Shown here: one piece after another, positions 25,455-40,059 of the stretch
Position numbering within the stretch: the stretch's first letter is position 1
Layout of the letters: each line of letters opens with the position of its first letter
NCBI GenBank assembly: GCA_043744775.1
Contig: JAYTUC010000027.1
Location: 11,940 to 75,939, forward strand
DNA length: 64,000 nucleotides
From: Fimbriiglobus sp.
Lineage (GTDB): Bacteria > Planctomycetota > Planctomycetia > Gemmatales > Gemmataceae
Direction of reading: 5' to 3'
Program-made: the position numbers and the translations under genes
The notes under the pieces: generated by a model
What the model was told of the DNA's origin: nothing
Seen by the model: only the letters and a program-made list of their open reading frames with translations
Database searches by the model: none

Positions 25455-26828
25455 TCACCGGCGGGCGTCGCGCAGGGCTTCGTCGATCGCCAAGTTCGCG
25501 TCGCGCGGCGTCACCCGGAAGCGCTCAACGGCCACACGGACCGCGGGGGTCTGTGTGCCGGCCGAGCGCTCCAGGGCGGCCAGGCCGCGCAGCACGCCGT
25601 CGGCGTCCAGCCCCGCGGCCGACGGCGGGAAGACGCGACGCGCCAGCGGCCGCAGGTCGCCGTCGGCGTGGGCCAACTCTTCGCGCCACGCCGCGAGTTG
25701 GCCGGCCGCGGCGGTCGCCCGCCGGGTGACTTCGGCCGGGGCGGGGGCGCGGCTCGTGCCCATCCACGCGGCCAGCGACGCGAGTTCGGACGCCTCCGCC
25801 AGCGTGCCGCCGGTCAGCGGCCAGAGCGACTGCCAGCGCGTCGCCCCGAGTTTGCCGCCGGCGACGGGGCGCTCGGGGCCGGGGATCGCGTGGTGGCAGC
25901 CGCGGCAGTCAGACTCCGCGAGTTCCGGCCAGACGCCGTGGGCGGCGCGGTCGGCCAGCAGTCGCGCCGACGCCTCGCCGCAGGCGGCGCGGCCGACAAG
26001 CCACATGCGCCACGCGGCGTCCGGCCCGCGCGGCGGCTGGCCGGGGCGGGTGCGGTACTTCTCGGACCAGTGCGGCGTCAAGCGGAGTTGGGCCTCGGCG
26101 AAGTCGAAGCCGTCGAGCCGGGGGTGGCCGGCGGCGATCATGTCGTGGTTCATGTCGCGCGGAACCGCGGAACCCCCGACTTCGGCCGGCGCGCCGACGT
26201 GGCAGCCGGCACAGGCGGCGGCGCGGCGGCCGAGGTCGTACAGTGGGGCCATCCCGGTCGCGGCGTAGCCGGCGGCGCGCTCGGCCGGCGTCCGCCAGGT
26301 GGTGTGGTCGCGCAGGTAGCGCTCGGCGTGGCCGTGACACGACTCGCACCCGATCCCTTGGGCCAACGCCGCCTCCGGGACGCCGGGCCGCCCGACGAGT
26401 TGCGGGTCGGTGTGGCAAGCCAGGCAGCGATCGTACTCGGTCGCCTTCAACAGCCCGCCCGACGGCTTGGGGACATTCAGACGCGCCATCATGGCAATTG
26501 CGAGCGGCAGTTTTAACGCGTCGTAAGCCTGGGTGTGGGGGTCGCGGGCTTGCCAGTGCGTCGCCGCGCCGGCGTAGCCGTGGGCGTCGATCGGCGAGGT
26601 CAGCGACGGGGCGGGGCCGCCGTGGCAGGCCGTCGCCGCGCAGCCGGCGTTGCCGACGCGCTGACTCGCGGCGGCGACTTCAGGGGGGACCCGGTCCGCG
26701 GCCGGGGGCGTGGCGGCGGGGACCTCGGAGTGCGACTTCAACGGCGACAGGGCGAGCGCGAGCAGGCCGCCGACGGCGACCACGCCGCAGGTCAGGTATC
26801 GCGTCCGTCCGTCGAGTCGCCGCGCCAT
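25455..26828 (-). CDS. Periplasmic pentahaem c-type cytochrome (paralogue 3)
   Basis: Start ATG 26828 ('MARRLDGRTRYLTCGVVAVGGLLALAL'). First motif CAATACH is CX4CH, followed by CLACH, CESCH, CAGCH, CRGCH. 'NHDMIAAGHPRL' block. The upstream part of ORF to 27293 looks non-coding. Confidence 0.8.
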   Translation of the reverse strand: MARRLDGRTRYLTCGVVAVGGLLALALSPLKSHSEVPAATPPAADRVPPEVAAASQRVGNAGCAATACHGGPAPSLTSPIDAHGYAGAATHWQARDPHTQAYDALKLPLAIAMMARLNVPKPSGGLLKATEYDRCLACHTDPQLVGRPGVPEAALAQGIGCESCHGHAERYLRDHTTWRTPAERAAGYAATGMAPLYDLGRRAAACAGCHVGAPAEVGGSAVPRDMNHDMIAAGHPRLDGFDFAEAQLRLTPHWSEKYRTRPGQPPRGPDAAWRMWLVGRAACGEASARLLADRAAHGVWPELAESDCRGCHHAIPGPERPVAGGKLGATRWQSLWPLTGGTLAEASELASLAAWMGTSRAPAPAEVTRRATAAAGQLAAWREELAHADGDLRPLARRVFPPSAAGLDADGVLRGLAALERSAGTQTPAVRVAVERFRVTPRDANLAIDEALRDARR

Positions 26829-26984
26829 CGTCCGCCCCGTGCCCAGGGATTGCGTTGTGCCTAAGCTACCAGGCTCCCCGCGCCGTGGCGCACGCGATCC
26901 CCCGTTTCGGCGTGCGAATTCGACCGCTTCCTGATACAAAGACCGTCCAGCCATCACACCCTGCCAGTTTACGAGGACGGCCCC

Positions 26985-27824
26985 TTGCGCTTCGGTTCGG
27001 CCAAGTCGGTGCGCGGCCGCGTCGGCCGGCTCGTCGCCGCGGCGACCGTGGTGGCCGCCGCGCCGCTCGCCGCGGTCTACGCCGCGTCGCTCGTCGGCCT
27101 CGGCGACTGGCCGCCGCGGCCGAGTGCGCCGTTCGGCTTCACTTGCGGCGTCGCCGTCGGGGCGATCGTGCTCTTCGAGATGCTGTTGGCCCCGCGTAAG
27201 TGGCTGCGCGGCCGGCGACTCGGGGCGACGCGGGTCTGGATGAAGGTCCACGTCTGGCTTGGCCTGGTCGCGTTGCCGCTGGTGTTGCTGCACGCCGGCC
27301 TCGGCTTCGGCGGGCCGCTGCCGGCCGCGACGCTCACACTGTTCTTACTCGTCTTCGCCAGCGGCGTCTGGGGCCTGGCCCTGCAACAGTGGCTGCCGCA
27401 GAAGTTCCTCACGGACATGCCGGGCGAGGTGATCGTGGCGCAAATCCCCGTGCTCGCCGACGCCGCGGCGGCCGAGGCGGCGCGGGTCGTCGCGGCCTTG
27501 CCCGGCCCGCCGCGCCTTGAGGTGGCCGGCTTCCGCGACGCCGACCTGCTGCCGTACCTGCGCTCCGGGCGTGGCTCGCGCGCGGCCCTGGCCGGCCGCG
27601 CCGAGGCCGACCGGCGCTTCCGGGAGCTGGCCGGCACCGCCACGCCCGAGGCGGCCATCGCGTGGGCGCGCCTGCGCGAACTCGTCGATGTGCGGCGGCA
27701 GTGGGACGCCGTGGCGGCGTACCACTTCTGGCTGCACAACTGGCTGCTGATTCACCTGCCGCTGTCGGTGGGGATGACCGCGCTGATGGTCGTCCACGCC
27801 GTCCGCGCCCTGAAGTACTGGTGA
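26985..27824 (+). CDS. Integral membrane protein, putative dihaem b-type cytochrome (two H-x13-H helices)
   Basis: TTG start 6 nt after GAGGA. About five hydrophobic helices. 'KVHVWLGLVALPLVLLHAG' and 'LIHLPLSVGMTALMVVHAV' each have two His separated by 13 residues. Its stop lies 3 nt before the decahaem gene. Confidence 0.55.
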   Translation: MRFGSAKSVRGRVGRLVAAATVVAAAPLAAVYAASLVGLGDWPPRPSAPFGFTCGVAVGAIVLFEMLLAPRKWLRGRRLGATRVWMKVHVWLGLVALPLVLLHAGLGFGGPLPAATLTLFLLVFASGVWGLALQQWLPQKFLTDMPGEVIVAQIPVLADAAAAEAARVVAALPGPPRLEVAGFRDADLLPYLRSGRGSRAALAGRAEADRRFRELAGTATPEAAIAWARLRELVDVRRQWDAVAAYHFWLHNWLLIHLPLSVGMTALMVVHAVRALKYW

Positions 27825-27827
27825 CCC

Positions 27828-29435
27828 ATGCCGCGTTCCCCGAGCCGCGACCTGAGCGACCGCCACCACGCCAGCCGGAGTTACTTCCGCCGGCCGGACG
27901 CCGTCACGCGCTGGAAGTGGCTCCTCTCCGCGTTAGCGTTAGGTGTCGCCTTCGCCTGGGCGACGGTCGAAGTCGCGCGGCCTTCCGCGGCGACCCCGGC
28001 GCACACGCACGGCATGTTGACCAACCCGCACGCCGCCTGGGACAGCAACTGTCAGGCGTGCCACGTCGCGTCGTCGCCGGGCGACTTCCTGGCGAACCCG
28101 CTCTCGGCCGCGCACCCCGACCAGCGCTGGCGTAACCTGACCTGCGACAAGTGCCACAGCGGCCCGGCGCACCAGGCCACGCCGTTGACCGCCGACGCGG
28201 ACTTCCACAACCAGTGCGCGAACTGCCACCACGACCACGGCGGCCGCGGCAACTCGCTCGTGAAGCTGACCGACGCCCACTGCGCGACCTGCCACGGCGA
28301 CCTCGCCCCGCACCGCGCGCCGGGGGCGAGTCCGCTGCCGGCCAACCGCGTGACCAACTTCGCCACCGACCACCCCGACTTCGGCCCGCTCAAAACATCG
28401 CCCGAGACGCGGACGCTCAAATTCAGCCACGCCCAGCACATGACCCCCGGCATCCCGCACACCGCCGACGGCAAGGAACTGCTCACGCCCGAGCGTACGA
28501 AACTGCTGTTCGGGGAGGCGGTCGCCAAACGCTACGGCGTGGAGCGGCCCGACGCCGCGCCCGTGAAACTGGAGTGCGCGTCGTGCCACCGCCTCGACGC
28601 CGGCGTCGGCACCGCGAAGCACGACGAGTTGAGCCGCCGACTCACGGCAGGGCAGGTGCCGGCCAAGGCGGTTCTGCCGGCTCGCGCCGCCGGCGACTAC
28701 TACCTGGGCGTCAACTTCGAGGCGAGTTGCCGCGACTGCCACCCGCTCACCGCCAGCCCAAAGGCGTCCGGCGGGCAACTCGTCGAGGCGTTCGACCTGC
28801 CGCACCGGGCCACGCGTGCCAAGCTCGTGGACGAGGTCCGCACCGGCTACTTGAAGCAGCTGCTCGCCGCCGAGCACCGCGACCTCGACGTGCCGGCCGG
28901 GCTGCAAGTCGGCCGGCAACGCCCGCCGACCGACGCCCCGGACACGCTGCGCTCGGCCGACGACCGCTACGCCCACGCCGAAGTCGGCCGGCTGTTCGAG
29001 CCGCCGACTGCCGGGCCGGTGCAGGGCTGCGTCAAGTGCCACGACCTCGACAGCCAGGGAGTCAAGCCGGTGCCCGACCGCACCGTCTGGCTGCCGCACG
29101 CGAAGTTCAACCACGCCGCGCACCGGGCGAATGCGTGCGTGGAGTGTCACCCCGGCACCGCGGCGTCGTTCCCGGCCGCGGGCGCGAAGTGGGCCGAGAA
29201 GGAGCCGGTGCAGATCCTCGGCGTGCAGTCGTGCCGCGCCTGCCACGCCCCCGCCGGCACGCCGGTGAACCTCGCCGACGGCAAGACGCTGACGGGTGGC
29301 GGGGTGAAGCACGCCTGCACCGACTGCCACAGTTACCACAACGCGACGCACCCGCTGCAAGGCCGCGGCGCGCCGGCCCGCGCCCCCGCCGCGCCACTCT
29401 CGCTCGGTGACTACTTCCACGGCGGCAAGCGTTAG
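27828..29435 (+). CDS. Membrane-anchored decahaem c-type cytochrome
   Basis: N-terminal anchor 'WKWLLSALALGVAFAWATV'. Ten CxxCH motifs: CQACH, CDKCH, CANCH, CATCH, CASCH, CRDCH, CVKCH, CVECH, CRACH, CTDCH. Confidence 0.85.
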   Translation: MPRSPSRDLSDRHHASRSYFRRPDAVTRWKWLLSALALGVAFAWATVEVARPSAATPAHTHGMLTNPHAAWDSNCQACHVASSPGDFLANPLSAAHPDQRWRNLTCDKCHSGPAHQATPLTADADFHNQCANCHHDHGGRGNSLVKLTDAHCATCHGDLAPHRAPGASPLPANRVTNFATDHPDFGPLKTSPETRTLKFSHAQHMTPGIPHTADGKELLTPERTKLLFGEAVAKRYGVERPDAAPVKLECASCHRLDAGVGTAKHDELSRRLTAGQVPAKAVLPARAAGDYYLGVNFEASCRDCHPLTASPKASGGQLVEAFDLPHRATRAKLVDEVRTGYLKQLLAAEHRDLDVPAGLQVGRQRPPTDAPDTLRSADDRYAHAEVGRLFEPPTAGPVQGCVKCHDLDSQGVKPVPDRTVWLPHAKFNHAAHRANACVECHPGTAASFPAAGAKWAEKEPVQILGVQSCRACHAPAGTPVNLADGKTLTGGGVKHACTDCHSYHNATHPLQGRGAPARAPAAPLSLGDYFHGGKR

Positions 29436-29459: not shown

Positions 29460-31574
29460 ATGATCATTCAAGACCTGCGCGACATCCAGCACGAGTACGG
29501 CTACCTGCCGGACGCGGAGCTGCGCGCGCTGTCGCGGCGGATCGAGATGCCGCTGGCCCGCATCGAGGAGGTCACGACGTTCTTCCCCGCCTTCCGGCTC
29601 GAACGCCGCCGGCCGGCGGCCGTCGAGGTGCGCGTCTGCCGGGACATGACGTGCCACCTGCGTGGGGCACCGGCGCTGATTGCCGCGGGGCAGAAAGTCG
29701 CGGCGGAGTTGAACGCCGACGGCGGGGATGTCGAGGTGACCGGCGTGTCGTGCCTGGGCCGCTGCGACCGCGCGCCGGCCGTCTGGGCGGAGCGGCAGCC
29801 GATGCCCGACAAGGAGCACGCCTGGGTCTACGCCGCCCCCGACGCCAAGCGGCTCGAGCGGATCGTCCGCACCCTCGCCGCCGGTCAGCGGCCGGAGCCG
29901 GACCCCGACGAAGCGTACAAGCCGGCGGGGAACTTCCTCACCGGGGCGCTCGACGTGTACGCCCGCAACGGCTGGCCGCGCGACTACCGCGCCGTGCGCG
30001 GCTTCGCGGAGACGCTCGTCGAGAAGCGGCGGCGTTGCGTGCCGCGGCCGCCGCTCGTCGATGGGCAGCCGCTGCAAGGCCCGGCGCTCGACGCCTACGT
30101 CCGGGAGGCGCACCCGTGGCTGTGGAAGCTCAACGAGTCGCGGCTCGGCGGCATGGGCGGCGCGGGGGCACCCGCCTACCAGAAGTGGCTCGACGTGTGG
30201 GGCCAACGCTCGCCGTTCGACGAGGACGCCGGGGCGCGGCCCGCGCTGGCGGACACCAAGCCGACGCTCTTCGACAAGTACGTCGTGGCCAACGGCGACG
30301 AGAGCGAGCCGGGGACGTTCAAGGACCGCGAGATCATGCAGCGCACGCCGCACCTGATTGTGGAAGGTGTCATCCTCGCGGGCCTGTTCGCCGGGTGCAG
30401 CTCCGGGTACATCTTCGTCCGCCACGAGTACCACGAGCAGGTCAAAGTGTTGCGCGAGGAGGTCGTCCGGGCGGAGGCGATGGGGGCGTGCGGGCCGAAC
30501 GTCTTCGGCTCCGGCCGCGCCTTCCCCGTCGAGGTGATCGAAAGCCCCGGCGGCTACATCTGCGGCGAGCAGACCGCGCTCATCGAGGCGATGGAGGGGC
30601 GGCGGGCGCAGCCGCGGAACCGACCGCCGGACATCACCTCGAACGGCTTCCGCGACCGGCCGACGATCCTCAACAACGTCGAGACGCTCGCCTGGACGCC
30701 GCTGATCGTGCTGACCGGCGGGGCGGCGTACTCCGGCGGCGGCTGGAGGGTGCCGGCCACGCCCAAGCTCGTCGAGAAGCCGCCGCGCTTCGGCGGCCGC
30801 CGGCTACTCTCGGTCAGCGGCGACGTGAAGCGCCCCGGCGTCTACGAGGTGCCGATCGGCCTGCCGCTGGGCGAACTCTTCGGCGGCCCCGACTACTGCG
30901 GCGGCGTGCTGGGCACGCTCAAAGCGGTGGCGACTTCGGGGCCGTCGGGCGGGATTCTGCCGGCGAAGTTCCCGCTGCCGCCGGACTTCCACGCGAAGTT
31001 CGCCGAGCAGTTGGGCCGCAAGAAGGACCGCGCCCGCAAAGACGGCGACGCCAAGCGGGCCGAGGCGGTCAAGGCCGGCAAGGAGTACCGCGAGCCGGCC
31101 GAGGAGGCGTACTCGCTCGAGGAGTGGTTCGTCGCCACGCACCTGCCTGCCGGGGCCACTCACTTCGACCTGGCGACGGCACCCATCGACTTGAAGTTCT
31201 TCGGCCTGATGGCTGACCTCGTCGGGCTGCCGGTGTCGCCGCTCTTGGGGGCCGGCATCGTCGTCTACGCCGAGGGCGCGGACATCCTCGACCAGGCGGT
31301 TTGCTTCACGCGCTTCTTCCGCAACGAGTCGTGCGGCAAGTGCGTGCCGTGCCGGCTGGGGGCGGAGAAGCTCGTGCGCATCGGCGAGTCGCTGCTGGCG
31401 GCCCGCCGCGCCGGCGGCAACGCCGAGGTCGCCGCGGTGCGCTCCGACATCAACGACGTGGCCTGGGCCTTGACGCAAACGTCGATCTGCTCGCTGGGCA
31501 CTTCGGCGGCGACCCCGCTGGCGTGCGCCCTGACGTACTTCCCCGACGAGGTGGCGAATGGCCGAGCCGAATGA
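29460..31574 (+). CDS. NuoE-like (2Fe-2S) / NuoF-like (FMN, NADH, 4Fe-4S) fusion protein
   Basis: N-terminus 'LRDIQHEYGYLPDAELRALSRRIEMPLARIEEVTTFF...VCRDMTCHLRG...CLGRCDRAP' is NuoE-like. 'VVANGDESEPGTFKDREIM' and 'ESCGKCVPCRLG' are NuoF-like. Confidence 0.85.
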   Translation: MIIQDLRDIQHEYGYLPDAELRALSRRIEMPLARIEEVTTFFPAFRLERRRPAAVEVRVCRDMTCHLRGAPALIAAGQKVAAELNADGGDVEVTGVSCLGRCDRAPAVWAERQPMPDKEHAWVYAAPDAKRLERIVRTLAAGQRPEPDPDEAYKPAGNFLTGALDVYARNGWPRDYRAVRGFAETLVEKRRRCVPRPPLVDGQPLQGPALDAYVREAHPWLWKLNESRLGGMGGAGAPAYQKWLDVWGQRSPFDEDAGARPALADTKPTLFDKYVVANGDESEPGTFKDREIMQRTPHLIVEGVILAGLFAGCSSGYIFVRHEYHEQVKVLREEVVRAEAMGACGPNVFGSGRAFPVEVIESPGGYICGEQTALIEAMEGRRAQPRNRPPDITSNGFRDRPTILNNVETLAWTPLIVLTGGAAYSGGGWRVPATPKLVEKPPRFGGRRLLSVSGDVKRPGVYEVPIGLPLGELFGGPDYCGGVLGTLKAVATSGPSGGILPAKFPLPPDFHAKFAEQLGRKKDRARKDGDAKRAEAVKAGKEYREPAEEAYSLEEWFVATHLPAGATHFDLATAPIDLKFFGLMADLVGLPVSPLLGAGIVVYAEGADILDQAVCFTRFFRNESCGKCVPCRLGAEKLVRIGESLLAARRAGGNAEVAAVRSDINDVAWALTQTSICSLGTSAATPLACALTYFPDEVANGRAE

Positions 31575-34386
31575 CGAGCTGACCCGCGGCCGCGACGAGG
31601 AGTCGGTCTTCGCCCGCGGCGAGAACGACGAACTCGTCCGCCGCGAAAAAGCCACCCGCGACCAGTTCGCCCGGACCGTCACCGTCAAGATCGACGGCTA
31701 CGCGGTCACGGTGCCGCAGGCGGTCCCGAAGACCGACGCCCGCGGCAACCCGCTGCGCGCCCCCGACGGCGGCCTGGTGCCGCGCAACTCGACCATCTAC
31801 GACGCGGCGATGAAGCTGGCCCGCGACGGCGCGTGGGCCGAGAGCGAGCTGCCCGAGCGCATCCCCCTGCTGTGCCACCAGCCGCACCTGCACCCGGTCG
31901 GCGTCTGCCGCATGTGCGTCGTGCAGATCCAGCAGATCAAGCGTGGGACGGCGCGCACCGAGCGGAAGTTGCTGCCGGCGTGTCAGCACATGGTCGCCGA
32001 GAACATGGTGGTGACGACCCGCGCCGGCTGGCCGGGCCACGAACCCGGCGAGAAGGCCCGCCTCGTCGGCGAGGCGTGCGCCAAGGCGGCGACCGACTTC
32101 GAGGCCGATTTCGCCCGGCGCGGCGGCGACCCGGAGGCCAAGCCGGCGGCCCTCGCGGCGGCGCTCACGAAGGCCGAGGCGCGGGCCGGCGACGGCGTCG
32201 AGAAGTTCGCCGCGAACATCCGCCGCAGCACCGGCCTCCTCGCGGAACTCCTCCTCGCCGACCACGCCCGGCCCGAACTCTCCGCGGTGCGCCGCCACGA
32301 GGACGAGTTGACCGCCGTCGCCAAGGTCGTCGGCGTCAGCGGCCCGCGGCCGCGGCTGGCGCGGCCGGCCGACGCCCCGTCGCGCAACGCCGCCCCCGGC
32401 GAGCGCTCGCGCCGCCTGAGCCTGCCGATCGCGGCGACGGTGATCGAAGACGAGCAGTTGGCCGACCCCGCCGCGCAAGTCGCCTGGGCGGGCTGGAACA
32501 AGCTCATCGACGAGGCGTTGCCGTACTCGTCGCGGACCGTCGTCGTGGATCACGACCGCTGCATATTGTGCGACCGCTGCGTGCGGTCGTGCGCCGACGT
32601 GAAGCCGTTCAAGGTCATCGGCCACACCGGCAAGGGCTACGAGACGCGCGTGAGTTTCGACCTCGACGCGCTCATGGGAGACTCGTCGTGCGTGCAGTGC
32701 GGCGAGTGCATGACCTCGTGCCCGACGGGGGCACTCTCGCTGCGCCGGCGGGTGCAGCCGCGGGCCTGGGACGACTCGCCGGCGGCGATCGCGCAGAACC
32801 CCAACACGCCCTTCCCCGACGGCTCCGGCTTCCTCGACGCCGACGAGATGCGCGACGTGTGGCTGAGTTACAGCAGCCCGACCCGCGGGCCGCAAGTCGT
32901 CTACCCGTTCCGCGCAGTACCGTTCTCGTACCTGAAGTGGAACGAGGGGGCGGTGCGGCGCTGGGAGGTCGCGCCGGGCACCGAGCGGGTGCTGTGCACC
33001 GAGGGCGAGTACGCCACGACGGCCTTCCTGACGCAGGGCAACGGCGACTTCGCCATCTACGTCCGCGGCACCGGCCCCGTCAAGAAGCCCGGCCTCTTCA
33101 AGCGCCTCTTCGGCGGCGGCGAGGCGGCGGACGGCGGCCTCGGGCGCAAGGTCCACACCGCCGGCGGCGACGAGTTCCTCATCGGCGAGATGAGCTGCCT
33201 GACGCACCGGCCGCGCACCGCCTCGGTCGTCGCCATCGCTCCGGCGGACAACCCGCGCCTGGCGCTCACGGCCGACGGCCGGGGCGTCGTCGCGGTCGCC
33301 GGCGCGGCGGGGCCGGTGGTCGTCTACGAGGTGACGCGCAACCTGCTCGACGTGATGCAGCGCTCCGCGGCGATCCGCGAGGACATCGCGGAGGTCTACT
33401 CGCAGCGGGCCGTGCAGTCGTGCGTGTCGAAGGGCCTGATGTTCGCCACGCTCGCCGACGCCGAGAAGGCCGCCGTGACGCGCTTCCTGCTGGTCAGCGG
33501 CAAGCTCGAACTGCGGCAACTCGACGCCGGCCAGGCGCTCGTCGCCGAGGGCGACTTGGTGGGCGACGCCAGCTTCTTCTACGTCGTGCGGCTCGGCACG
33601 TTGCGCGTGTTCAAGGGCGAGGCCGGCCGCGAGCGCGACCTGCGCCTACTGGGGCCGGGCGACAGCTTCGGCGAGGTGTCGATGCTACCCGGCGGCGAGG
33701 GCGTCCGCACGGCCAGCGTGGCGACCCTCGACCCCGCCGAGGTCGTGCTGGTGCCCAAGGCGCTGTTCCTCCAGATGTGCGAGGCGTTCCCGGCGGTCCG
33801 GGCCGAACTCGAGCGCGAGAAGCGCGAGCGCGTCGCCGGGTCGCCGCCGCCGGCGATGCTGACCGAGTACGTCCGCCAGGGGCTTTACCAGGCGCAAAAG
33901 GTGTTGGCACTCGACCTGGTGAACTGCACCCGCTGCGACGAGTGTACCAAGGCGTGCGCCGACTCGCACGGCGGCCAGGCGCGGCTGCTGCGCGAGGGCT
34001 TGCGCTTCGGGGACTTCCTCGTCGCCACGTCGTGCCGGTCGTGCCAGAAGCCGTACTGCATGGACGGCTGCCCCGTCGATGCGATCCACCGCCGCGGCAC
34101 GAGCCTGGAAGTCGTGATCGAGGACCACTGCATCGGTTGCGGATTGTGCGAGCGCAACTGCCCCTACGGCGCGATCCACATGGTGCCGCGCGACGAGAGA
34201 AACGAGGCGGCGGCGGGGCACCCGGCCGGCGACCCGACCCGCACGGCCGCGCGGGTGGCGGCGAACTGCGACCTGTGCGACGGCGGCGAGCCGCGCTGCG
34301 TCGAGGCGTGCCCCCACGAGGCGGCGTTCCGGTTCACCGGCGCGGGGCTGCTGCAAGTCGTCGAGGCGCGGCGGGCGGGGGGGTAA
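31558..34386 (+). CDS. Polyferredoxin: NuoG-N-terminal-like 2Fe-2S/4Fe-4S + two cyclic-nucleotide-binding domains + DmsB/NrfC-like four-cluster domain
   Basis: NuoG-N-like: 'VKIDGYAVTVPQ', 'LLCHQPHLHPVGVCRMCVVQI', 'CILCDRCVRSC', 'CVQCGECMTSCPTGA'. CNB-like: 'GDEFLIGEMSCLTHRPRTASVVA' and 'GPGDSFGEVSMLPGGEGVRTASVA'. DmsB-like: 'CTRCDECTKAC', 'CRSCQKPYCMDGCPVDAI', 'CIGCGLCERNCPYGAI', 'CDLCDGGEPRCVEACPHEA'. 17-nt overlap with the upstream gene. Confidence 0.8.
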   Translation: MAEPNDELTRGRDEESVFARGENDELVRREKATRDQFARTVTVKIDGYAVTVPQAVPKTDARGNPLRAPDGGLVPRNSTIYDAAMKLARDGAWAESELPERIPLLCHQPHLHPVGVCRMCVVQIQQIKRGTARTERKLLPACQHMVAENMVVTTRAGWPGHEPGEKARLVGEACAKAATDFEADFARRGGDPEAKPAALAAALTKAEARAGDGVEKFAANIRRSTGLLAELLLADHARPELSAVRRHEDELTAVAKVVGVSGPRPRLARPADAPSRNAAPGERSRRLSLPIAATVIEDEQLADPAAQVAWAGWNKLIDEALPYSSRTVVVDHDRCILCDRCVRSCADVKPFKVIGHTGKGYETRVSFDLDALMGDSSCVQCGECMTSCPTGALSLRRRVQPRAWDDSPAAIAQNPNTPFPDGSGFLDADEMRDVWLSYSSPTRGPQVVYPFRAVPFSYLKWNEGAVRRWEVAPGTERVLCTEGEYATTAFLTQGNGDFAIYVRGTGPVKKPGLFKRLFGGGEAADGGLGRKVHTAGGDEFLIGEMSCLTHRPRTASVVAIAPADNPRLALTADGRGVVAVAGAAGPVVVYEVTRNLLDVMQRSAAIREDIAEVYSQRAVQSCVSKGLMFATLADAEKAAVTRFLLVSGKLELRQLDAGQALVAEGDLVGDASFFYVVRLGTLRVFKGEAGRERDLRLLGPGDSFGEVSMLPGGEGVRTASVATLDPAEVVLVPKALFLQMCEAFPAVRAELEREKRERVAGSPPPAMLTEYVRQGLYQAQKVLALDLVNCTRCDECTKACADSHGGQARLLREGLRFGDFLVATSCRSCQKPYCMDGCPVDAIHRRGTSLEVVIEDHCIGCGLCERNCPYGAIHMVPRDERNEAAAGHPAGDPTRTAARVAANCDLCDGGEPRCVEACPHEAAFRFTGAGLLQVVEARRAGG

Positions 34387-34399
34387 CTGCCGCCGCGCC

Positions 34400-36067
34400 T
34401 CACTTCCCCGGCAGGTCGGCGACGCGGCTCCAGCGGTCGCGCGAGATCAGCGCCTCCATCGTGCGGGCCATGAGCGCGACCGCCGGGCCTTCCACGACCT
34501 CTTGGCTCTGGATCACGCCGCTGAGCACCTTTGCCGCCTCGGGCAGGCGGTGCGCCTCGTACAGGCTCAGCGCCTCCTCGTAGCGGGCCTTCGTGTCCGC
34601 CCAGCCCGGCTCGCCGCGCTTCACGAGTTCGTGCAACTGCAGCGGCTCGCCGATGTTGACCACGCGGACCTCGGCGAGCCGGCGCGACTCGAACTCGGTG
34701 CCGACGCGGTCGAGGGTCGATTGCGACACCACCAGCCGCGTCTTGAGGTACTTCGTCGCCCCCTGGACCCGGCTGGCGACGTTGACCACGTTGCCCAAGA
34801 CGCCGTACTTGAAGCGCTGCTCGGTGCCCATGTTGCCGACTTGGGCGACGCCGCTGTTGATGCCGATGCTGTAGTCGAGGACCTCAGGGAGGCGGCCGGC
34901 CCAGCGAGCGTTCAACTCGGGCAGGCAGTCGATCATCGCCAGCGCGGCGCGGCAGGCGAACTGGGCGTGCTCGGGCTGGTTCGAGGGCGCGCCCCACATC
35001 GCCATCATGCCGTCGCCGATGAAATCGACCACGACCCCGCGGTACTCCGCCACGCACCCCGTGAGGACGCCCATCGTGTCGCGCACCAGTTGCAGAGTCT
35101 GCACGGTGCCGAGCTTCTCGCTGAGCCGGCTGAAGCCGCGGATGTCGCAGAACAGCACCGAGACCTCGGCGTCGCGGGCCTCGTTGACGAGTTCGGGGTT
35201 GTCGATGAGTTGGCGGGCGATCTCGGGGGGGAAGAACTTCTCCATCATGCGGAGGTGCTGCCGCCGCGTGTCGATGTTGGCCTCGACCTTGACGCGCAAG
35301 AGGCCGTGGTCCACCGGCTTCGTCAAGAAGTCGTTGGCGCGGGCCTTCAGGCAGGCGGCGATCTTGTCGATCTCGTGCTCGCCGGAGACCATGAGCACGG
35401 GCACCTCGCTGCGGCCGCTGCCCTCGCGCATGGCCTTGAGCACGGTCAGGCCGTCGGCCTCGGGCAGGTTCAGGTCGAGCAGGATGAGGTCGAAGGTGAC
35501 CTTCTCGGCCAGGTGGATCGCCTGCCGGCCGTCGGCCGCCTCCCAGACCTCGTAGCCGAGGCCGCGCAAGAGGTGGCGCACGTCGCGGCGGCCCTCGTCG
35601 TCGTCGTCCACGACCAGGATGCGCGCCAGGTGCGGCCGCGGCGCGAGCGCCGGGCCGGCGTCGGGGCCGGCGTCGGGGGCGGCCTCGGCGGCCGGGGGCG
35701 GGGCGGCCGGCGGGGCCTCGCCCGCGTCGGGGCGGTCGATCTGGCGGTTGGCCTCCCAGCCGAGTTTGACGATGGCGGTCAGTTGGTCCGCGTAGCCGCC
35801 GGGGTGCTTGCGGTGCAGGATTTGCCCGCCGCCGAGCACGCGGTTGAGCAGCCCCTTGAGGTCGTGGCGGCTGAGGTTCGAGGAGTTGACCGCGGCCGCG
35901 AACCGCTCGGCGGCCTGCGCCATGCGCTCCGCCCCCGCGCGGAAGTCGGCCGGGGCGTCCGGGGGCAGCCCGGCCAGCAGCGCGGCGGCGCGCTCGACGA
36001 GCCGTGCGGCCAGGGGCGGCAGGAGGCCGGGCGTCTCCGGCGCGGCGGCGAGTGAGTCGGCGGGCAT
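34400..36067 (-). CDS. HPt-like / receiver / class III adenylate-guanylate cyclase fusion
   Basis: 'NLSRHDLKGLLNRVLGG' is HPt-like (H-x-LKG). REC: 'RILVVDDDDEGRR...DLILLDLNLPEADG'. Cyclase: 'VSVLFCDIRGFSRLSE...DFIGDGMMAMWGAP...GINSGVAQVGNMG'. Confidence 0.8.
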   Translation of the reverse strand: MPADSLAAAPETPGLLPPLAARLVERAAALLAGLPPDAPADFRAGAERMAQAAERFAAAVNSSNLSRHDLKGLLNRVLGGGQILHRKHPGGYADQLTAIVKLGWEANRQIDRPDAGEAPPAAPPPAAEAAPDAGPDAGPALAPRPHLARILVVDDDDEGRRDVRHLLRGLGYEVWEAADGRQAIHLAEKVTFDLILLDLNLPEADGLTVLKAMREGSGRSEVPVLMVSGEHEIDKIAACLKARANDFLTKPVDHGLLRVKVEANIDTRRQHLRMMEKFFPPEIARQLIDNPELVNEARDAEVSVLFCDIRGFSRLSEKLGTVQTLQLVRDTMGVLTGCVAEYRGVVVDFIGDGMMAMWGAPSNQPEHAQFACRAALAMIDCLPELNARWAGRLPEVLDYSIGINSGVAQVGNMGTEQRFKYGVLGNVVNVASRVQGATKYLKTRLVVSQSTLDRVGTEFESRRLAEVRVVNIGEPLQLHELVKRGEPGWADTKARYEEALSLYEAHRLPEAAKVLSGVIQSQEVVEGPAVALMARTMEALISRDRWSRVADLPGK

Positions 36068-36068
36068 G

Positions 36069-36446
36069 TCAGCGGGCCTCGGGGGGCAGGTGCCGCGCGA
36101 CGACCGCCAGGAAGGCGTCGAAGTCGTACGGCTTGAACACGTAGTCGTCGCAGCCGGCCTCGCGCGCCTTGGCGATGGCGTTGCTCATCGCGTGGCCGCT
36201 CATCGCCACGACCGCCAGGCCGCGCGTGGCCGGGTCGGCGCGCAGCTCGGCGATGGCGCGCAGGCCGTCGCCGGGGCCAGGGCAGTCGATGTCCATGACG
36301 ACCAGCCGCGGCCGCTCGCGCTTCGCCGCCTCGAAGGCCAGGTGCGCCGCCGGCACCTCGACGACCTCGTGCCCGGCCCCGCCGAGCAGGTCGTTTAGGA
36401 GTTCGCGCTCGAACTCGCTGTCCTCGACAATCAGGATCTTCGCCAT
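36069..36446 (-). CDS. Single-domain CheY-like response regulator
   Basis: 'MAKILIVEDSEFERELL...LVVMDIDCPGPGDGL...MSGHA'. Size 125 aa. Its stop lies 1 nt before the cyclase start. Confidence 0.85.
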   Translation of the reverse strand: MAKILIVEDSEFERELLNDLLGGAGHEVVEVPAAHLAFEAAKRERPRLVVMDIDCPGPGDGLRAIAELRADPATRGLAVVAMSGHAMSNAIAKAREAGCDDYVFKPYDFDAFLAVVARHLPPEAR

Positions 36447-36452
36447 CGCGGC

Positions 36453-39400
36453 TCACCTCTCAAGGGGTCGGTCGTCGGGCGAGGCCGGGGGCTGCCACCC
36501 CGGCTGGAGTTTGCGGATGCGCGCGGCCATGTCGGTCCAGGACTTGACCGGCTTGACGACCCAGTCGTCCGCGCCGTTCGCCTTCGCCTTCTCCGGCTCG
36601 TCGTGCACACTTACGATGATGACCGGGATGTCGTGGGTGCCGGGGTCCTCCTTCAACGCGACCAGGATCGCCCAGCCGTTGAGCGAGTCGCGCAGCACGA
36701 TGTCGAGCAGGATCGCGCAGGGGCGGTAGTCCTTCACCGACTGGATCGCGGTCGTGTCCGAACTCGCCACGCGCACCTCGAAGCCGCGCTCGGTCAGCAT
36801 CGCCTCGGCGAGTTCGCGGTTGCTCGGCTCGTCGTCCACGACCAGGACGCGGCGGTTCACGGCCGCCGGCGTCACCGGCACGGGCACCGGGGCCGGCGGG
36901 GCGGTCGCCGGCTTGCCCGGCTCGTGGGCGTCGGCGAGCCGCGCGGCGAAGCTCGCCGTGAACGTGGACCCCAGGCCGAGGCCGCCGCTCTCGACGGTGA
37001 CGCGGCCGCCCATCTTCTCGCACAGCCCCTTGCAGATGACCAGGCCCAGCCCAGTACCCTCGCGGTTCAGCTCGCGGTCCTTGATCTTGCCGAACGGCTT
37101 GGGGTCGCGCACCTTCACCAGCTCGTCCTCCGTCATGCCGCGGCCCTGGTCGCGCACGGCGATGTGCACGAGGTCGCCGCCGGGGCCGGCCTCGCGGCGG
37201 CACTCGACGCGGATGGGGCCGTCCTTGGTGAACTTCGAGGCGTTGCCGATCAGGTTGTACAGCACCTGCTTGAGCCGCACGTCGTCCTGGAAGACCGTGC
37301 CGATCTCGGCGGGGCACTCGACCTCGAGGCAGTTCTTGCCCTCCTCGACCTTGGCGCGCATCTCGTTGGCGACCTTGCCGACGAACTCGGGCAGGTCGAA
37401 CTCGCGCGGGTTCAGGTCGAGCTTGCCCTCCATGATCTTCATCGAGTCGAGGATGTCGTTGACGAGTGCCGTGAGGTAGTTCATCGACTCGTAGATGCGC
37501 CGCACGCGCCGCTCGACCTCGGGGGCCGGCTTGCCGCGCAAGAGCATCTGCGTGTCGCCGCTAATGACGGTCAGCGGGGCGCGCAGCTCGTGGCTGACGT
37601 TGGCCATGAACATGTCCTTGGCGCTGTTGGCCAGTTGCAACTCCTTGTTGGTGCGGTCCTGGGCGAGGTTGGCGACGTTGAGCTTCTCGACGCTCTCGGA
37701 GAGCTGCCGCGTCTTGTGCTGCACGCGGCGCTCCAGCTCCTGCTGCCGCGCGAGTTCGCCGGTGATGTCGCGGACGATGCCGGTGTAGTGGGCCTGGCCG
37801 CCCAGTTCCAGCGGCGTGAAGGTCGCCCCGGCGGGGAAGGTCGTCCCGGCCGGGCGGCGGGCGGTCAGCAGGATGCGCGGCACGGTCCAGAAGTTCGCGC
37901 CGCCCAACGCGCTGTGCATGTCCGAGAACGAGGTGCCGGGGTCGGGCCGCGCGCCGTCGTGCTCGCCGGGCCTCACGAGGTAGCTGTGCAGGTTGGTGCC
38001 GATCACCTGGGCGGCCGGGCCGAGGCCGAAGAGCTTCGAGAACTTGACGTTGGCCTGGGTGATGTACCCCAGCGCGTCGATGACCACCACGCCGTCGGGG
38101 GCGTTGTTGAGGATGAACTCGAACTGGGCGGTGCGCTGCCGCAGGTGCGTGCTGAGGTTGCCCATCTCCCGGACCATCGTGCGGAAGGCGTCCGCGAGGG
38201 TGACGACCTCCTGCGGCCCCTTCGACGGCAACTCGTCGAGCGCCAAGAATGTCGAGGTGCCGTGCGGCCCGAAGGCGTCGGAGTCGGCCCCCGCGTCGCC
38301 GGCGGTGTGCTTGACGCGCTCGGCGAGCGACCAGGCGGCGTGCTTGATCTGCCGCAGCGGCCGCGTCACGTACCACGCCATGAGTAGCGCCACCGACCCC
38401 CCGCCGACGATGCTCAGCAGCACCACCATGACCAGGTGCGGGAAGGTCTCGATCCAGACGTCCTGCTTGATCTCCGCGACCGACGCCGTGACCACCAGCC
38501 GCGGGGCGGTGCCGTCGGGCTGCTCGCCCTCGAGGCCGGTCTGGAGGAGGGTGTACGAGCCGATGGCGTCGCGGTTGCTCACCGCCGGCCGCCAGCCGCT
38601 CTTGGCGTAGCCGAGTTGCGGCAGGTAGGTGGCGTAGTCGATCCGGTCCTTCGGCAGCCAGTCCTCGCCGAGGAGCCGGCCCGCCTCGGCCTGGGCCAGC
38701 CGCAACTCCTCCCGGTCAGAGTGCGACATCGCGAGGAGCATTTCGCCGTGAAGGTCGTCCGGCTCGGGGTCGAGGTCGTAGTAGCTCAGGCCGCGCCCCC
38801 CCCGCTCGCGCAGCGCCTCGTTGAACGCCTTGCACTTCGACTGCGCCTCCGCCAACTCCACCCGCGGCGGGACGCGGACCACCCGCTTCGTGGTGTAGAC
38901 GCGCTCGGGATCGACCGGCCCGCCGTCCGGGAGGTCGGAGGTGCGGAAGGTGTCCTTGCTGCTCTTGCGGGTGTCGGCCGGCGAGAGGTTCGTCACCGCG
39001 CCGGAGCAGAACACCCGGAGTTGACTGTCGCCCTTCAGGAAGTAGGGCTGCTCGGCCGGCGCGTTCTTGTCGAGGCGGCCCCCCGCGGACAGCGAGGGCC
39101 AGCGGAACTCCGTCTCGGGCGACCACTTCGCGAACGGCCTGGCCTCGGAGTCGAGGTGCGGGACGGCGACCGTGCCCGACGGGTGGTACAGGAACTCCGC
39201 CGGCGTCTTGGCGGGGTCGATCAGGTAGTACAGCACGCGCGGGGAGAGCCGCCACAGGTCGTCGAGGTAGTGCGTCACGTTGACCGCCGCCACCAGCGCC
39301 GGGCCGTCGGCCCGCTCCGCGAGCGGGCAGCTCAGGTAGACGCGGCACGTCCCCGTCTTGGCCGGCGCGAAGACGCGATTGGGGTCCGGTGCGTCGAGGG

Positions 39401-39878
39401 AGAAGGGGCTGCACTCGGCGACGGGGTGCCGCGGCCCGGCGGGACGCTTGGCGAGTTGCTCCTGCCAGGTCGCGAACGACGCCGCGACCCCCGCCGGCGG
39501 GCGGGTCGAGAGGAACACCGTCACGATCTCGGCGTTGCGGACTTCGGTGCCCGTCGCCAGTTGCCGCTTCGTGGGCGGGCTCCACGCCGTCACCAGATCC
39601 TTGCCGACCTTCTCGTCGAGGACCGTGACGTCCGGCTTGAGGGCGTTCGCCGCCGCCCGCAGCTTGATCGCGAACCCGAGGACTTGGTCCCGGAATTCGC
39701 GCGACCGGAGGTTCGTCTCGTCCTTCAAATCGACGATCTCGTGGTCGAGCAATGCCTTCTCGCCGCTACGCCAGACCAGCCGGCCAGTCAGGACGGTCGT
39801 GACCGCCAGGATGACCACGGCCAGCAGCGCGTTCTGGACGTTGAGCGGCCAGCGCAGCGGGCGCAGGAGGGCATTCAT
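36453..39878 (-). CDS. Hybrid sensor histidine kinase (large extracytoplasmic sensor, HAMP, PAS, HisKA, HATPase, REC)
   Basis: Start ATG 39878 ('MNALLRPLRW'). Two TMs flank a sensor region of about 490 aa. 'FEFILNNAPDGVVVID' (PAS). 'SHELRAPLT' (H-box). 'NLIGNASKFT', 'DQGRGM', 'GTGLGLVICKGL'. REC 'RVLVVDDEPSNRE...ILLDIVL'. The upstream ORF extension to 40058 covers a palindrome. Confidence 0.85.
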   Translation of the reverse strand: MNALLRPLRWPLNVQNALLAVVILAVTTVLTGRLVWRSGEKALLDHEIVDLKDETNLRSREFRDQVLGFAIKLRAAANALKPDVTVLDEKVGKDLVTAWSPPTKRQLATGTEVRNAEIVTVFLSTRPPAGVAASFATWQEQLAKRPAGPRHPVAECSPFSLDAPDPNRVFAPAKTGTCRVYLSCPLAERADGPALVAAVNVTHYLDDLWRLSPRVLYYLIDPAKTPAEFLYHPSGTVAVPHLDSEARPFAKWSPETEFRWPSLSAGGRLDKNAPAEQPYFLKGDSQLRVFCSGAVTNLSPADTRKSSKDTFRTSDLPDGGPVDPERVYTTKRVVRVPPRVELAEAQSKCKAFNEALRERGGRGLSYYDLDPEPDDLHGEMLLAMSHSDREELRLAQAEAGRLLGEDWLPKDRIDYATYLPQLGYAKSGWRPAVSNRDAIGSYTLLQTGLEGEQPDGTAPRLVVTASVAEIKQDVWIETFPHLVMVVLLSIVGGGSVALLMAWYVTRPLRQIKHAAWSLAERVKHTAGDAGADSDAFGPHGTSTFLALDELPSKGPQEVVTLADAFRTMVREMGNLSTHLRQRTAQFEFILNNAPDGVVVIDALGYITQANVKFSKLFGLGPAAQVIGTNLHSYLVRPGEHDGARPDPGTSFSDMHSALGGANFWTVPRILLTARRPAGTTFPAGATFTPLELGGQAHYTGIVRDITGELARQQELERRVQHKTRQLSESVEKLNVANLAQDRTNKELQLANSAKDMFMANVSHELRAPLTVISGDTQMLLRGKPAPEVERRVRRIYESMNYLTALVNDILDSMKIMEGKLDLNPREFDLPEFVGKVANEMRAKVEEGKNCLEVECPAEIGTVFQDDVRLKQVLYNLIGNASKFTKDGPIRVECRREAGPGGDLVHIAVRDQGRGMTEDELVKVRDPKPFGKIKDRELNREGTGLGLVICKGLCEKMGGRVTVESGGLGLGSTFTASFAARLADAHEPGKPATAPPAPVPVPVTPAAVNRRVLVVDDEPSNRELAEAMLTERGFEVRVASSDTTAIQSVKDYRPCAILLDIVLRDSLNGWAILVALKEDPGTHDIPVIIVSVHDEPEKAKANGADDWVVKPVKSWTDMAARIRKLQPGWQPPASPDDRPLER

Positions 39879-39984
39879 GGGGCCGCCGTCTGGGGTAGTC
39901 GGGGTGAGTCTGTGAGTGGCGTTAGTGTGCGGAGTCGCCCACGCCCGGTCAAGCGAATTGTCGTCGTGCAACCGTCGAAGTGGC

Positions 39985-40056
39985 GGCGAGCCGGAAGCGT
40001 CAGCGCCCGGAGTCTTCGCGTGGACGGACTCCGGGCGCTGACTCTTCCGGCTCGCC
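39985..40056. repeat. 30-bp inverted repeat of the GGCGAGCC...GGCTCGCC family (1 mismatch, 12-nt loop)
   Basis: GGCGAGCCGGAAGCGTCAGCGCCCGGAGTC (39985-40014) pairs with GACTCCGGGCGCTGACTCTTCCGGCTCGCC (40027-40056). Sits between the OM-protein stop and the kinase start. Confidence 0.85.
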
Positions 40057-40059
40057 AAG

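Follow-up and report, generated by a model that had tools for sequence, protein, structure and literature searches.

Tandem cyclic nucleotide-binding domains between the iron-sulfur modules of a Fimbriiglobus protein: a possible second-messenger switch on a predicted NADH-to-periplasm electron conduit

The window analysed here, a stretch of 64,000 nucleotides (nt) of contig JAYTUC010000027.1 of the planctomycete Fimbriiglobus sp., encodes a protein of 942 residues (hereafter the target) in which a HoxU-like iron-sulfur (Fe-S) module, two consecutive cyclic nucleotide-binding (CNB) domains and a polyferredoxin with motifs for four clusters follow one another in a single chain. We consider it an even proposition that this protein serves as the connecting Fe-S subunit in an electron conduit from the cytoplasm to the periplasm and is switched by a cyclic nucleoside monophosphate (cNMP) via its CNB tandem. 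The narrower proposal that a cNMP, possibly cyclic GMP (cGMP) from a dedicated cyclase with an Asp/Gly pair, directly gates the intramolecular Fe-S electron transfer and would act as a second-messenger valve on an NADH-to-periplasmic-multihaem conduit is put forward tentatively, as a possibility rather short of even. The region had been pointed out by an original prediction from the sequence of the window, which placed two CNB domains in the middle of an Fe-S wire. Domain content, motif conservation and conservation of the gene cluster were determined directly, and folds were taken from predicted structures. The features of the target gene are listed with their positions in the window and, in brackets, the residue numbers of the protein.

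31558 to 34386, plus strand: target gene, 942 residues, with HoxU-like Fe-S module, tandem CNB and four-cluster polyferredoxin (open reading frame, Pfam, NCBIfam, AlphaFold2 (AF2))
31777 to 32022, plus strand: [2Fe-2S] domain Fer2_4 (74-155) with invariant Cys106, Cys117, Cys120 and Cys142
32539 to 32736, plus strand: two-[4Fe-4S] ferredoxin domain of the HoxU/Nqo3 type (328-393), C335 to C345 and C378 to C388
32827 to 33393, plus strand: CNB-A (about 424-612), divergent, with two variable loop insertions (AF2, Foldseek, hhalign)
33166 to 33234, plus strand: phosphate-binding cassette of CNB-A, GEMSCLTHRPRTASVVA (537-559; quoted in the original prediction as GDEFLIGEMSCLTHRPRTASVVA)
33433 to 33837, plus strand: CNB-B (about 626-760), a canonical CNB domain (Pfam, PDB sequence matches, hhalign)
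33652 to 33723, plus strand: phosphate-binding cassette of CNB-B, FGEVSMLPGGEGVRTASVA (699-722; quoted as GPGDSFGEVSMLPGGEGVRTASVA)
33898 to 34335, plus strand: DmsB/HydN-like polyferredoxin with Cys4 motifs at 790-800, 826-838, 858-868 and 904-918, all 16 Cys invariant

The span 32836 to 33830, for which two CNB domains had been predicted, corresponds to residues 427-758, i.e. to the tandem CNB region, and both quoted cassette peptides were located in the open reading frame of the target. The profile scan that had been proposed as a check gave a divided answer: CNB-B matched the Pfam family PF00027 (cNMP_binding) with 69.7 bits (cut-off 27.5; E-value 2e-19) over residues 653-742 and profile positions 2-87 of 89, whereas CNB-A remained negative with 17 bits. 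CNB-B also matched Crp, PKG and PKA-R among the PDB sequences, and it was the only one of the two domains detected when the target was compared with these sequences by phmmer. In the alignment of the CNB-B profile with E. coli CRP by hhalign (E 4e-10), G705/E706 fell on G71/E72 and R717/T718/A719 on R82/S83/A84; the CNB-A profile against the same single sequence was not significant (E 0.42).

Due to the fact that CNB-A was below the Pfam cut-off and missed by phmmer, structure prediction and profile-profile comparison were needed for this domain. The profiles of CNB-A and CNB-B aligned with each other over 74 columns with the cassettes in register (E 2e-5). The AF2 model of the target, which was built from 108 homologues, had a mean predicted local distance difference test score (pLDDT) of 82.1 and a predicted template modelling score of 0.80; within CNB-A the pLDDT was mostly 86-97 (residues 400-500 and 530-600) and decreased to 67-75 in the inserted loops at about 500-530 and 540-550. 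The predicted secondary structure contains runs of strands at 436-593 and 651-733 and cassette helices at 544-549 and 706-709, in agreement with the CNB fold, i.e. a barrel of eight beta-strands with helical subdomains at its flanks and a short helix at the cassette between the sixth and seventh strand. In the Foldseek comparison of the model with the PDB, 50 of the 50 matches listed were CNB-domain structures (PKG I-beta, PKA RI and RII, Bcy1, protist PKA-R and PKG), and most of the listed matches were tandem CNB-A/B structures aligned over about 280-330 columns across both domains, with a best E-value of 5e-14. The modelled fold and the profile comparison support CNB-A as a genuine CNB domain despite its sub-threshold Pfam score, and the predicted pair of CNB domains between the Fe-S modules was confirmed, by Pfam for CNB-B and with support from AF2, Foldseek and hhalign for CNB-A.

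Of the residues by which CNB cassettes hold the cyclic phosphate and the ribose, the target has G543, E544, R553, T554 and A555 in CNB-A, and G705, E706, R717, T718 and A719 in CNB-B. Across the 108 homologues, G543 and E544 were present in every sequence, R553 in 107 and A555 in 106, and in the second cassette G705 and R717 were again found in all 108, E706 in 102 and A719 in 104. The loss of cassette Arg and Gly upon proper alignment, which the original prediction had named as a possible objection, was observed neither in the CRP alignment nor among the homologues. Among 76 species-level relatives with about 31-93% identity, which belong to Planctomycetota and Chthoniobacterales, nearly all retained cassettes of the form GE...R-[TS]-A. 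As an observation in its own right, insertions of 10-45 residues, unusual for CNB domains within the phosphate-binding cassette (region of target residues 705-717), occur in CNB-B of relatives from Pirellulales, Zavarzinella and Chthoniobacterales (loci L043, L045, L057, L058, L066, L079 and L080). The CNB-A cassette of the target has the canonical 17-residue form, with the likewise canonical spacing of 8 residues between Glu and Arg, and closely resembles the consensus motifs tabulated for HCN channels, bacterial channels and PKG (PMC2246266). CNB families with other ligands are without the cassette Arg (Kannan et al. 2007, PMC2246266), and degenerate CNB domains normally lack it as well (PMC2246266). 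The near-invariance of the cassette residues together with the missing Arg of the families with other ligands supports the proposed cNMP binding by the CNB tandem.

No signal peptide or transmembrane (TM) segment was found in the target by a TM scan, and the protein is therefore assigned to the cytoplasm. The GC content at third codon positions of its reading frame is 0.96, as usual for the true genes of the window (72% GC). In the N-terminal Fe-S module the Pfam match to Fer2_4 amounted to 30-34 bits and that to Fer4_Nqo3 to 27.6 bits (cut-off 27), the latter with CxxCxxCxxxC at residues 335 and 378, and all Cys of this HoxU/NuoG-N-type module were invariant across the alignment of homologues. 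Partial NCBIfam matches were obtained to HoxU (80 bits, cut-off 333), FeFe hydrogenase A6 (107 bits) and NuoG (60 bits, cut-off 470), the equivalog cut-offs lying far above every score of the module. It shares with HoxU and the N-terminal domain of NuoG (HoxEFU, Nqo1-3) the succession of Fer2_4 and the two-[4Fe-4S] Fer4_Nqo3 domain and the translationally coupled position of the gene right after NuoE/NuoF homologues, but is distinguished from them by a helical insertion of about 160 residues (about 160-320) and by the C-terminal extension with CNB-CNB-polyferredoxin. The N5 motif His-x3-Cys-x2-Cys-x5-Cys and a molybdopterin-like domain, both features of difference to NuoG, were sought in the target and neither was found, and no conserved Cys is present between C142 and C335 in the homologue alignment. 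An assignment as NuoG was rejected because of the lacking N5 motif and molybdopterin-like domain and the score of 60 versus 470; judged from its sequence motifs, the module is HoxU-like and not NuoG.

The C-terminal polyferredoxin matched Fer4_11 in Pfam with 27.1 bits (cut-off 26.2), and the NCBIfam profiles DmsB, ArrB, DsrO and HydN matched residues 780-930. Its four Cys4 motifs stand in the same order as in the DmsB/NrfC/HybA/HydN subunits; unlike these subunits, the target has no twin-arginine translocation signal, hence its cytoplasmic assignment, and no molybdo-enzyme partner, and its polyferredoxin is preceded by CNB domains. Pfam, NCBIfam and the Cys motifs agree with the predicted NuoG-N-like and DmsB-like nature of the Fe-S domains flanking the CNB tandem.

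The conduit reading is based on the genes that accompany the target on its upstream side:

29460 to 31574, plus strand: NuoE-NuoF fusion of 704 residues (Pfam, NCBIfam), overlapping the start of the target gene by 17 nt
27828 to 29435, plus strand: membrane-anchored decahaem cytochrome c with 10 CXXCH motifs and one N-terminal TM helix
26985 to 27824, plus strand: polytopic membrane protein of 279 residues with about five TM helices, putative di-haem b transmembrane conduit
22392 to 23951, 23948 to 25423 and 25455 to 27293, minus strand: three multihaem cytochrome c genes, divergent from the operon

Inspection of the NuoE-NuoF translation by eye revealed the motif of the flavin mononucleotide (FMN)/NADH site and the Cys motifs of clusters N1a and N3. 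The nuoEF gene is located immediately upstream of the target in 61 of 65 loci, and in 47 of 54 loci it is preceded, in the same orientation, by the genes for the membrane protein and the decahaem cytochrome. Moreover, NuoE, NuoF, Fer2_4, Fer4, CNB and polyferredoxin are combined in one chain of 1483 residues in the metagenome protein P0359, a Rosetta-stone fusion that is evidence for NuoEF and the target as one complex. The overlap and synteny with nuoEF, the linkage to the membrane protein and decahaem genes and the P0359 fusion support the reading as an electron conduit. An electron-bifurcating enzyme of the Bfu/HydABC type was rejected, as the NuoF part is without extra ferredoxin domains in Pfam.

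The membrane protein contains the His pairs H89/H103 and H257/H271, each spaced i/i+14 on one TM helix. Three of the four His were invariant in both alignments of this protein (29 and 68 homologues), and H257 was invariant in alignment A3 and conserved to at least 90% in alignment A4. Among 29 members, the Pfam hits to haem-b membrane families were all sub-threshold, namely DUF4405 in 16 (best E 4e-4), Ferric_reduct in 5 and Ni_hydr_CYTB in 2, and the homologue P0159 carries the UniRef name 'Ferric oxidoreductase domain-containing'. From these His patterns the protein appears as a candidate new di-haem transmembrane electron conduit. Its Pfam matches all stayed below threshold, and its gene always accompanies that of the decahaem cytochrome.

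What we infer from these data is the binding of haem b, the direction in which the electrons flow, the binding of a ligand and the gating itself; that electron transfer is gated by a cNMP is plausible. In the proposed mechanism, NADH would be oxidised at the NuoE-NuoF fusion with its FMN and clusters N1a and N3, and the electrons would pass via N3 into the HoxU-like N-terminus of the target with its [2Fe-2S] and two [4Fe-4S] clusters and from there into the C-terminal four-cluster polyferredoxin. The His-rich membrane protein, putatively of the di-haem b type, would conduct the electrons across the membrane to the decahaem cytochrome c anchored there and on to other multihaem cytochromes of the periplasm. 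Cyclic AMP (cAMP) or cGMP would be bound by the PKA-R/PKG-like CNB tandem at the two intact phosphate-binding cassettes, and a ligand-driven rearrangement of the CNB domains would shift the polyferredoxin relative to the HoxU-like module or to the membrane partner. As a consequence, NADH-driven electron export would be switched on or off post-translationally where the electrons enter or leave the polyferredoxin. In the Fimbriiglobus genome, the messenger may be supplied by an adjacent relay of PAS kinase, receiver and receiver-cyclase.

In total, 665 homologues of the target were detectable, mainly in Gemmataceae. A scan of one genome per species yielded 388 target loci, distributed over Gemmatales, Pirellulales, Planctomycetales and Chthoniobacterales; a Fimbriiglobus metagenome-assembled genome has the closest of them, with 93% identity. 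The half comprising CNB-B and the polyferredoxin is represented by 391 sequences at E <= 1e-30 after clustering at 50% identity, and the CNB-polyferredoxin relatives include architectures of about 380 residues (CNB and Fer4) and about 530 residues (CNB-CNB-Fer4). In the loci L082 (6817 to 9593) and L083 (2330 to 5106) the target is naturally split, in the linker before CNB-A, into a HoxU-like protein of 395 residues and a CNB-CNB-polyferredoxin of 530 residues; the split genes overlap by 4 nt, were found in 6 contigs and have the same neighbours as in the unsplit loci. The locus L103 (752 to 10939) encodes a protein of 866 residues with three cNMP_binding stretches and a polyferredoxin, without NuoEF or a HoxU part; its neighbours are the membrane protein, the decahaem cytochrome and two cytochromes of the c554-like kind. 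That CNB-polyferredoxin recurs beside the genes for membrane protein and decahaem cytochrome even where NuoEF is missing supports the conduit reading. From the split, fused and threefold-CNB variants it follows that CNB(n)-polyferredoxin, paired with membrane protein and decahaem cytochrome, forms the evolutionary unit; among related proteins the CNB number ranges from 1 to 3. Embedding of the CNB domains in the middle of the wire, as originally predicted, holds for the target itself, in which they do lie between Fe-S modules, but the fusion is lineage-specific, as seen from L082/L083 and L103. On this comparison of architectures, the CNB domains are best seen as an N-terminal regulatory region of the polyferredoxin, and the form of Gemmataceae reads as a fusion in which CNB(n)-polyferredoxin is joined with the HoxU-like subunit that belongs to a NuoEF diaphorase.

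Further variants were observed. The protein P0324 (1058 residues) consists of Fer4, CNB, Fer4 and a C-terminal NUDIX hydrolase, and the fusion with this nucleotide pyrophosphatase might be related to turnover of the ligand. In the locus L081 (4511 to 9167 of one long metagenome contig), the region of the target after nuoEF is occupied by three open reading frames of 283, 160 and 388 residues, which may represent a further split or assembly frameshifts and were not used as evidence.

On the downstream side, the target gene faces genes of signal transduction:

34400 to 36067, minus strand: REC domain and class III nucleotide cyclase (Guanylate_cyc), convergent, 13 nt from the target stop (34386)
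36069 to 36446, minus strand: stand-alone receiver, preceding the cyclase in the same orientation
36453 to 40058, minus strand: PAS hybrid histidine kinase, likewise preceding the cyclase in the same orientation

The receiver and the PAS hybrid kinase likely form a phosphorelay that controls the cyclase, and both are kept with the cyclase in the locus L002. The predicted convergent class III cyclase gene at 13 nt was exact according to the open reading frame coordinates and Pfam. The functional link drawn from it and the suggested survey of co-occurrence had a mixed outcome: the immediate convergent arrangement was kept in 1 of 54 loci only, namely L002, a relative with 75% identity, but the cyclase subfamily recurs near distant clusters. 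Cyclases of the same subfamily, with the C-terminal extension in common, were located less than 10 kb from the cluster in L068, L072, L078 and L082, the identity to the cyclase of the window being 41-47% in more distant relatives and 75% in L002. Additionally, a reverse search covered 80 metagenome loci with the cyclase subfamily (750 kb in total), in which cluster genes were found beside the cyclase in L097, L100/L103, L113 and L118; these are about 4 independent cases versus about 0.1 expected, a chance figure estimated on the assumption of one cluster per genome of about 8 Mb. In L103 the cyclase gene is divergent and located 160 nt from the operon. Pure chance as an explanation of the adjacency, considered from the forward count of 1/54, was dropped after this reverse search. 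The link between cyclase and cluster appears from these gene neighbourhoods to be loose but real, the 13-nt adjacency as such being weak evidence for a functional link. Furthermore, in the L082/L083 locus a cyclase of the same subfamily precedes nuoEF at a distance of 2.3 kb, an NAD kinase lying in between, and a gene resembling class II cAMP phosphodiesterases (PDEase_II/metallo-beta-lactamase) lies about 7 kb downstream.

At the two substrate-specifying positions, the cyclase subfamily has an invariant Asp/Gly pair (alignment A5), compared with Glu/Gly in the guanylate cyclase Cya2 (2w01) and Lys/Thr in CyaB and CyaC. Judged by these residues, the product of the subfamily may be made from GTP, cGMP being a lead and not a conclusion. 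The C-terminal extension of the subfamily contains the conserved residues W250 and Y257-E258.

Several observations weigh against a cNMP-switched conduit. The match of CNB-A below the Pfam cut-off (17 bits) covers only the cassette at profile positions 46-71; between GE and R of the CNB-B cassette the relatives carry insertions of 0-45 residues, by which the pocket could be altered; the cyclase is absent from most target loci; and the AF2 model of the membrane protein (pLDDT 87.8) had no significant Foldseek match in the PDB (best E 0.5), so that its di-haem b role rests on sequence logic. The strong divergence of CNB-A with its large variable loops, the tolerance of cassette insertions in CNB-B, the varying CNB number and the scarcity of cyclases close to the loci would also suit a CNB tandem that has lost its ligand response and serves as a structural scaffold or oligomerisation spacer, with constitutive electron transfer. 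Such a role is regarded as unlikely, since Gly-Glu and Arg-[TS]-Ala rank with the best-conserved positions of the region (102-108 of 108) while their surroundings vary, and since the Arg usually missing from degenerate CNB domains (PMC2246266) is kept here. We likewise assign little probability to a ligand other than cAMP or cGMP, be it a nucleoside, a phosphorylated metabolite or another cyclic nucleotide, e.g. one with a pyrimidine base, by which the CNB domains would report the metabolic state. The base-contacting residues are not readable from sequence, the product of the neighbouring cyclase subfamily is uncertain given its unusual Asp/Gly pair versus the Lys/Thr of CyaB and CyaC, and trypanosome PKA-R CNB domains bind nucleosides according to the titles of the PDB entries 6flo, 6hyi and 6hyq, which are among the Foldseek matches. 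However, the Arg that binds the cyclic phosphate and the Gly-Glu are kept in the target, its cassette is close to the HCN, bacterial-channel and PKG consensus (PMC2246266), and T318R (with E311A and V319A) was needed for the cAMP-independent trypanosome PKA-R in the engineered cAMP-related mutant 6h4g, as given in the PDB title.

It is quite improbable, in our estimation, that the target acts mainly in signalling, i.e. that the redox state of the NADH or cytochrome pool is read by its Fe-S clusters, the CNB domains add the cNMP level and both control partner binding, e.g. assembly on the membrane protein, without bulk electron flux. This would agree with the sensor-like multi-domain layout beside a two-component and cyclase relay and with the NUDIX hydrolase fused in P0324, but seven predicted clusters in a chain, an obligatory FMN/NADH module and transmembrane and decahaem partners are typical of a conduit. 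The switched electron conduit was retained as the preferred reading.

Among known systems, the tandem CNB of PKA-R and PKG (PDB 4z07, 1ne4, 1rgs) is the closest structural match to the target (E 5e-14 to 1e-13, about 300 columns), with two consecutive CNB beta-barrels joined via the B/C helices and cassettes with Gly-Glu and Arg-Thr-Ala. The identity amounts to 16-18% only, and the rmsd between model and structures is high (12-15 Å) because the relative orientation of the domains differs. A dimerisation/docking domain, an inhibitor site and a kinase partner were found neither in the target nor in the neighbouring proteins; in difference to PKA-R and PKG, CNB-A has two large loop insertions and the output is an Fe-S electron carrier. 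The target is not a member of the PKA-R/PKG family and would work like one by analogy. Bacterial tandem CNB domains covalently joined to a redox enzyme are known from the 'Bact_Pyrredox' family, the cassette consensus of which, GEMGLISGRRRGATVRA, is similar to that of CNB-A (PMC2246266); its partner is a pyridine nucleotide-disulphide oxidoreductase, a flavoenzyme, whereas Fe-S ferredoxin modules are the partners in the target.

Similar gene content is described for the ptdABCDEFG cluster of Alphaproteobacteria and Nitrospirales, the function of which was called completely unknown by its authors (10.1101/2023.11.21.568154). PtdE is a CNB-domain protein with 4Fe-4S clusters, accompanied by the NAD(P) flavoprotein PtdC, the ferric-reductase-like membrane protein PtdF and the decahaem cytochrome PtdG (10.1101/2023.11.21.568154). 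In contrast to the cluster of the window, the Ptd set includes penta- and tetra-haem proteins and a porin, two clusters are reported for PtdE, which is not fused to a HoxU-like module, and PtdC is a flavoprotein of the FAD/NAD(P) type and not NuoEF (10.1101/2023.11.21.568154). As far as textual descriptions alone can be compared, the two sets look analogous in gene content.

The literature search yielded no functional study of a CNB-Fe-S fusion, PtdE being described in one preprint and a hit on Geobacter proving irrelevant. Of the 30 CNB families tabulated in PMC2246266 (Table 1), not one is described as linked to Fe-S proteins, and a text search of the paper for ferredoxin and Fe-S terms gave no match. 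The fusion is already generically annotated in public databases, its homologues being named 'cyclic nucleotide-binding domain-containing protein' by NCBI and 'Fe-S-cluster-containing hydrogenase component 2/CRP-like cAMP-binding protein' by JGI. In the literature searched, no characterised precedent for ligand-gated post-translational control of a respiratory or electron-export wire was found.

With regard to the remaining genes, the start of the cytochrome gene at 25455 to 27293 is probably near 26831. The three divergent cytochromes contain 4-5 CXXCH motifs each and are Cytochrome_C554- and C7-like; in all of Gemmatales the trio keeps its synteny with the cluster, and interleaved copies occur in loci of Pirellulales. 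Located a few kb away from this region rich in cytochromes, a gene on the plus strand (42121 to 44469) encodes a protein of 782 residues with a sub-threshold match to RTX calcium-binding repeats (19.8 bits, cut-off 23) and a C-terminal HbpS-like haem-degrading domain.

Among the known outputs of CNB domains are kinases, channels, exchange factors and transcription factors. If the proposal is true, an Fe-S electron wire would be a new output class of CNB control, and bacteria would gain a fast and reversible opening and closing of an electron-export route that drains NADH. The cluster of His-rich membrane protein, decahaem cytochrome, NuoEF and CNB-Fe-S protein occurs in hundreds of planctomycete and verrucomicrobial species and resembles the Ptd cluster of marine Alphaproteobacteria and Nitrospirales, so that solving one of the systems would annotate many genomes and would bear on extracellular and periplasmic electron transfer in environmentally abundant groups.

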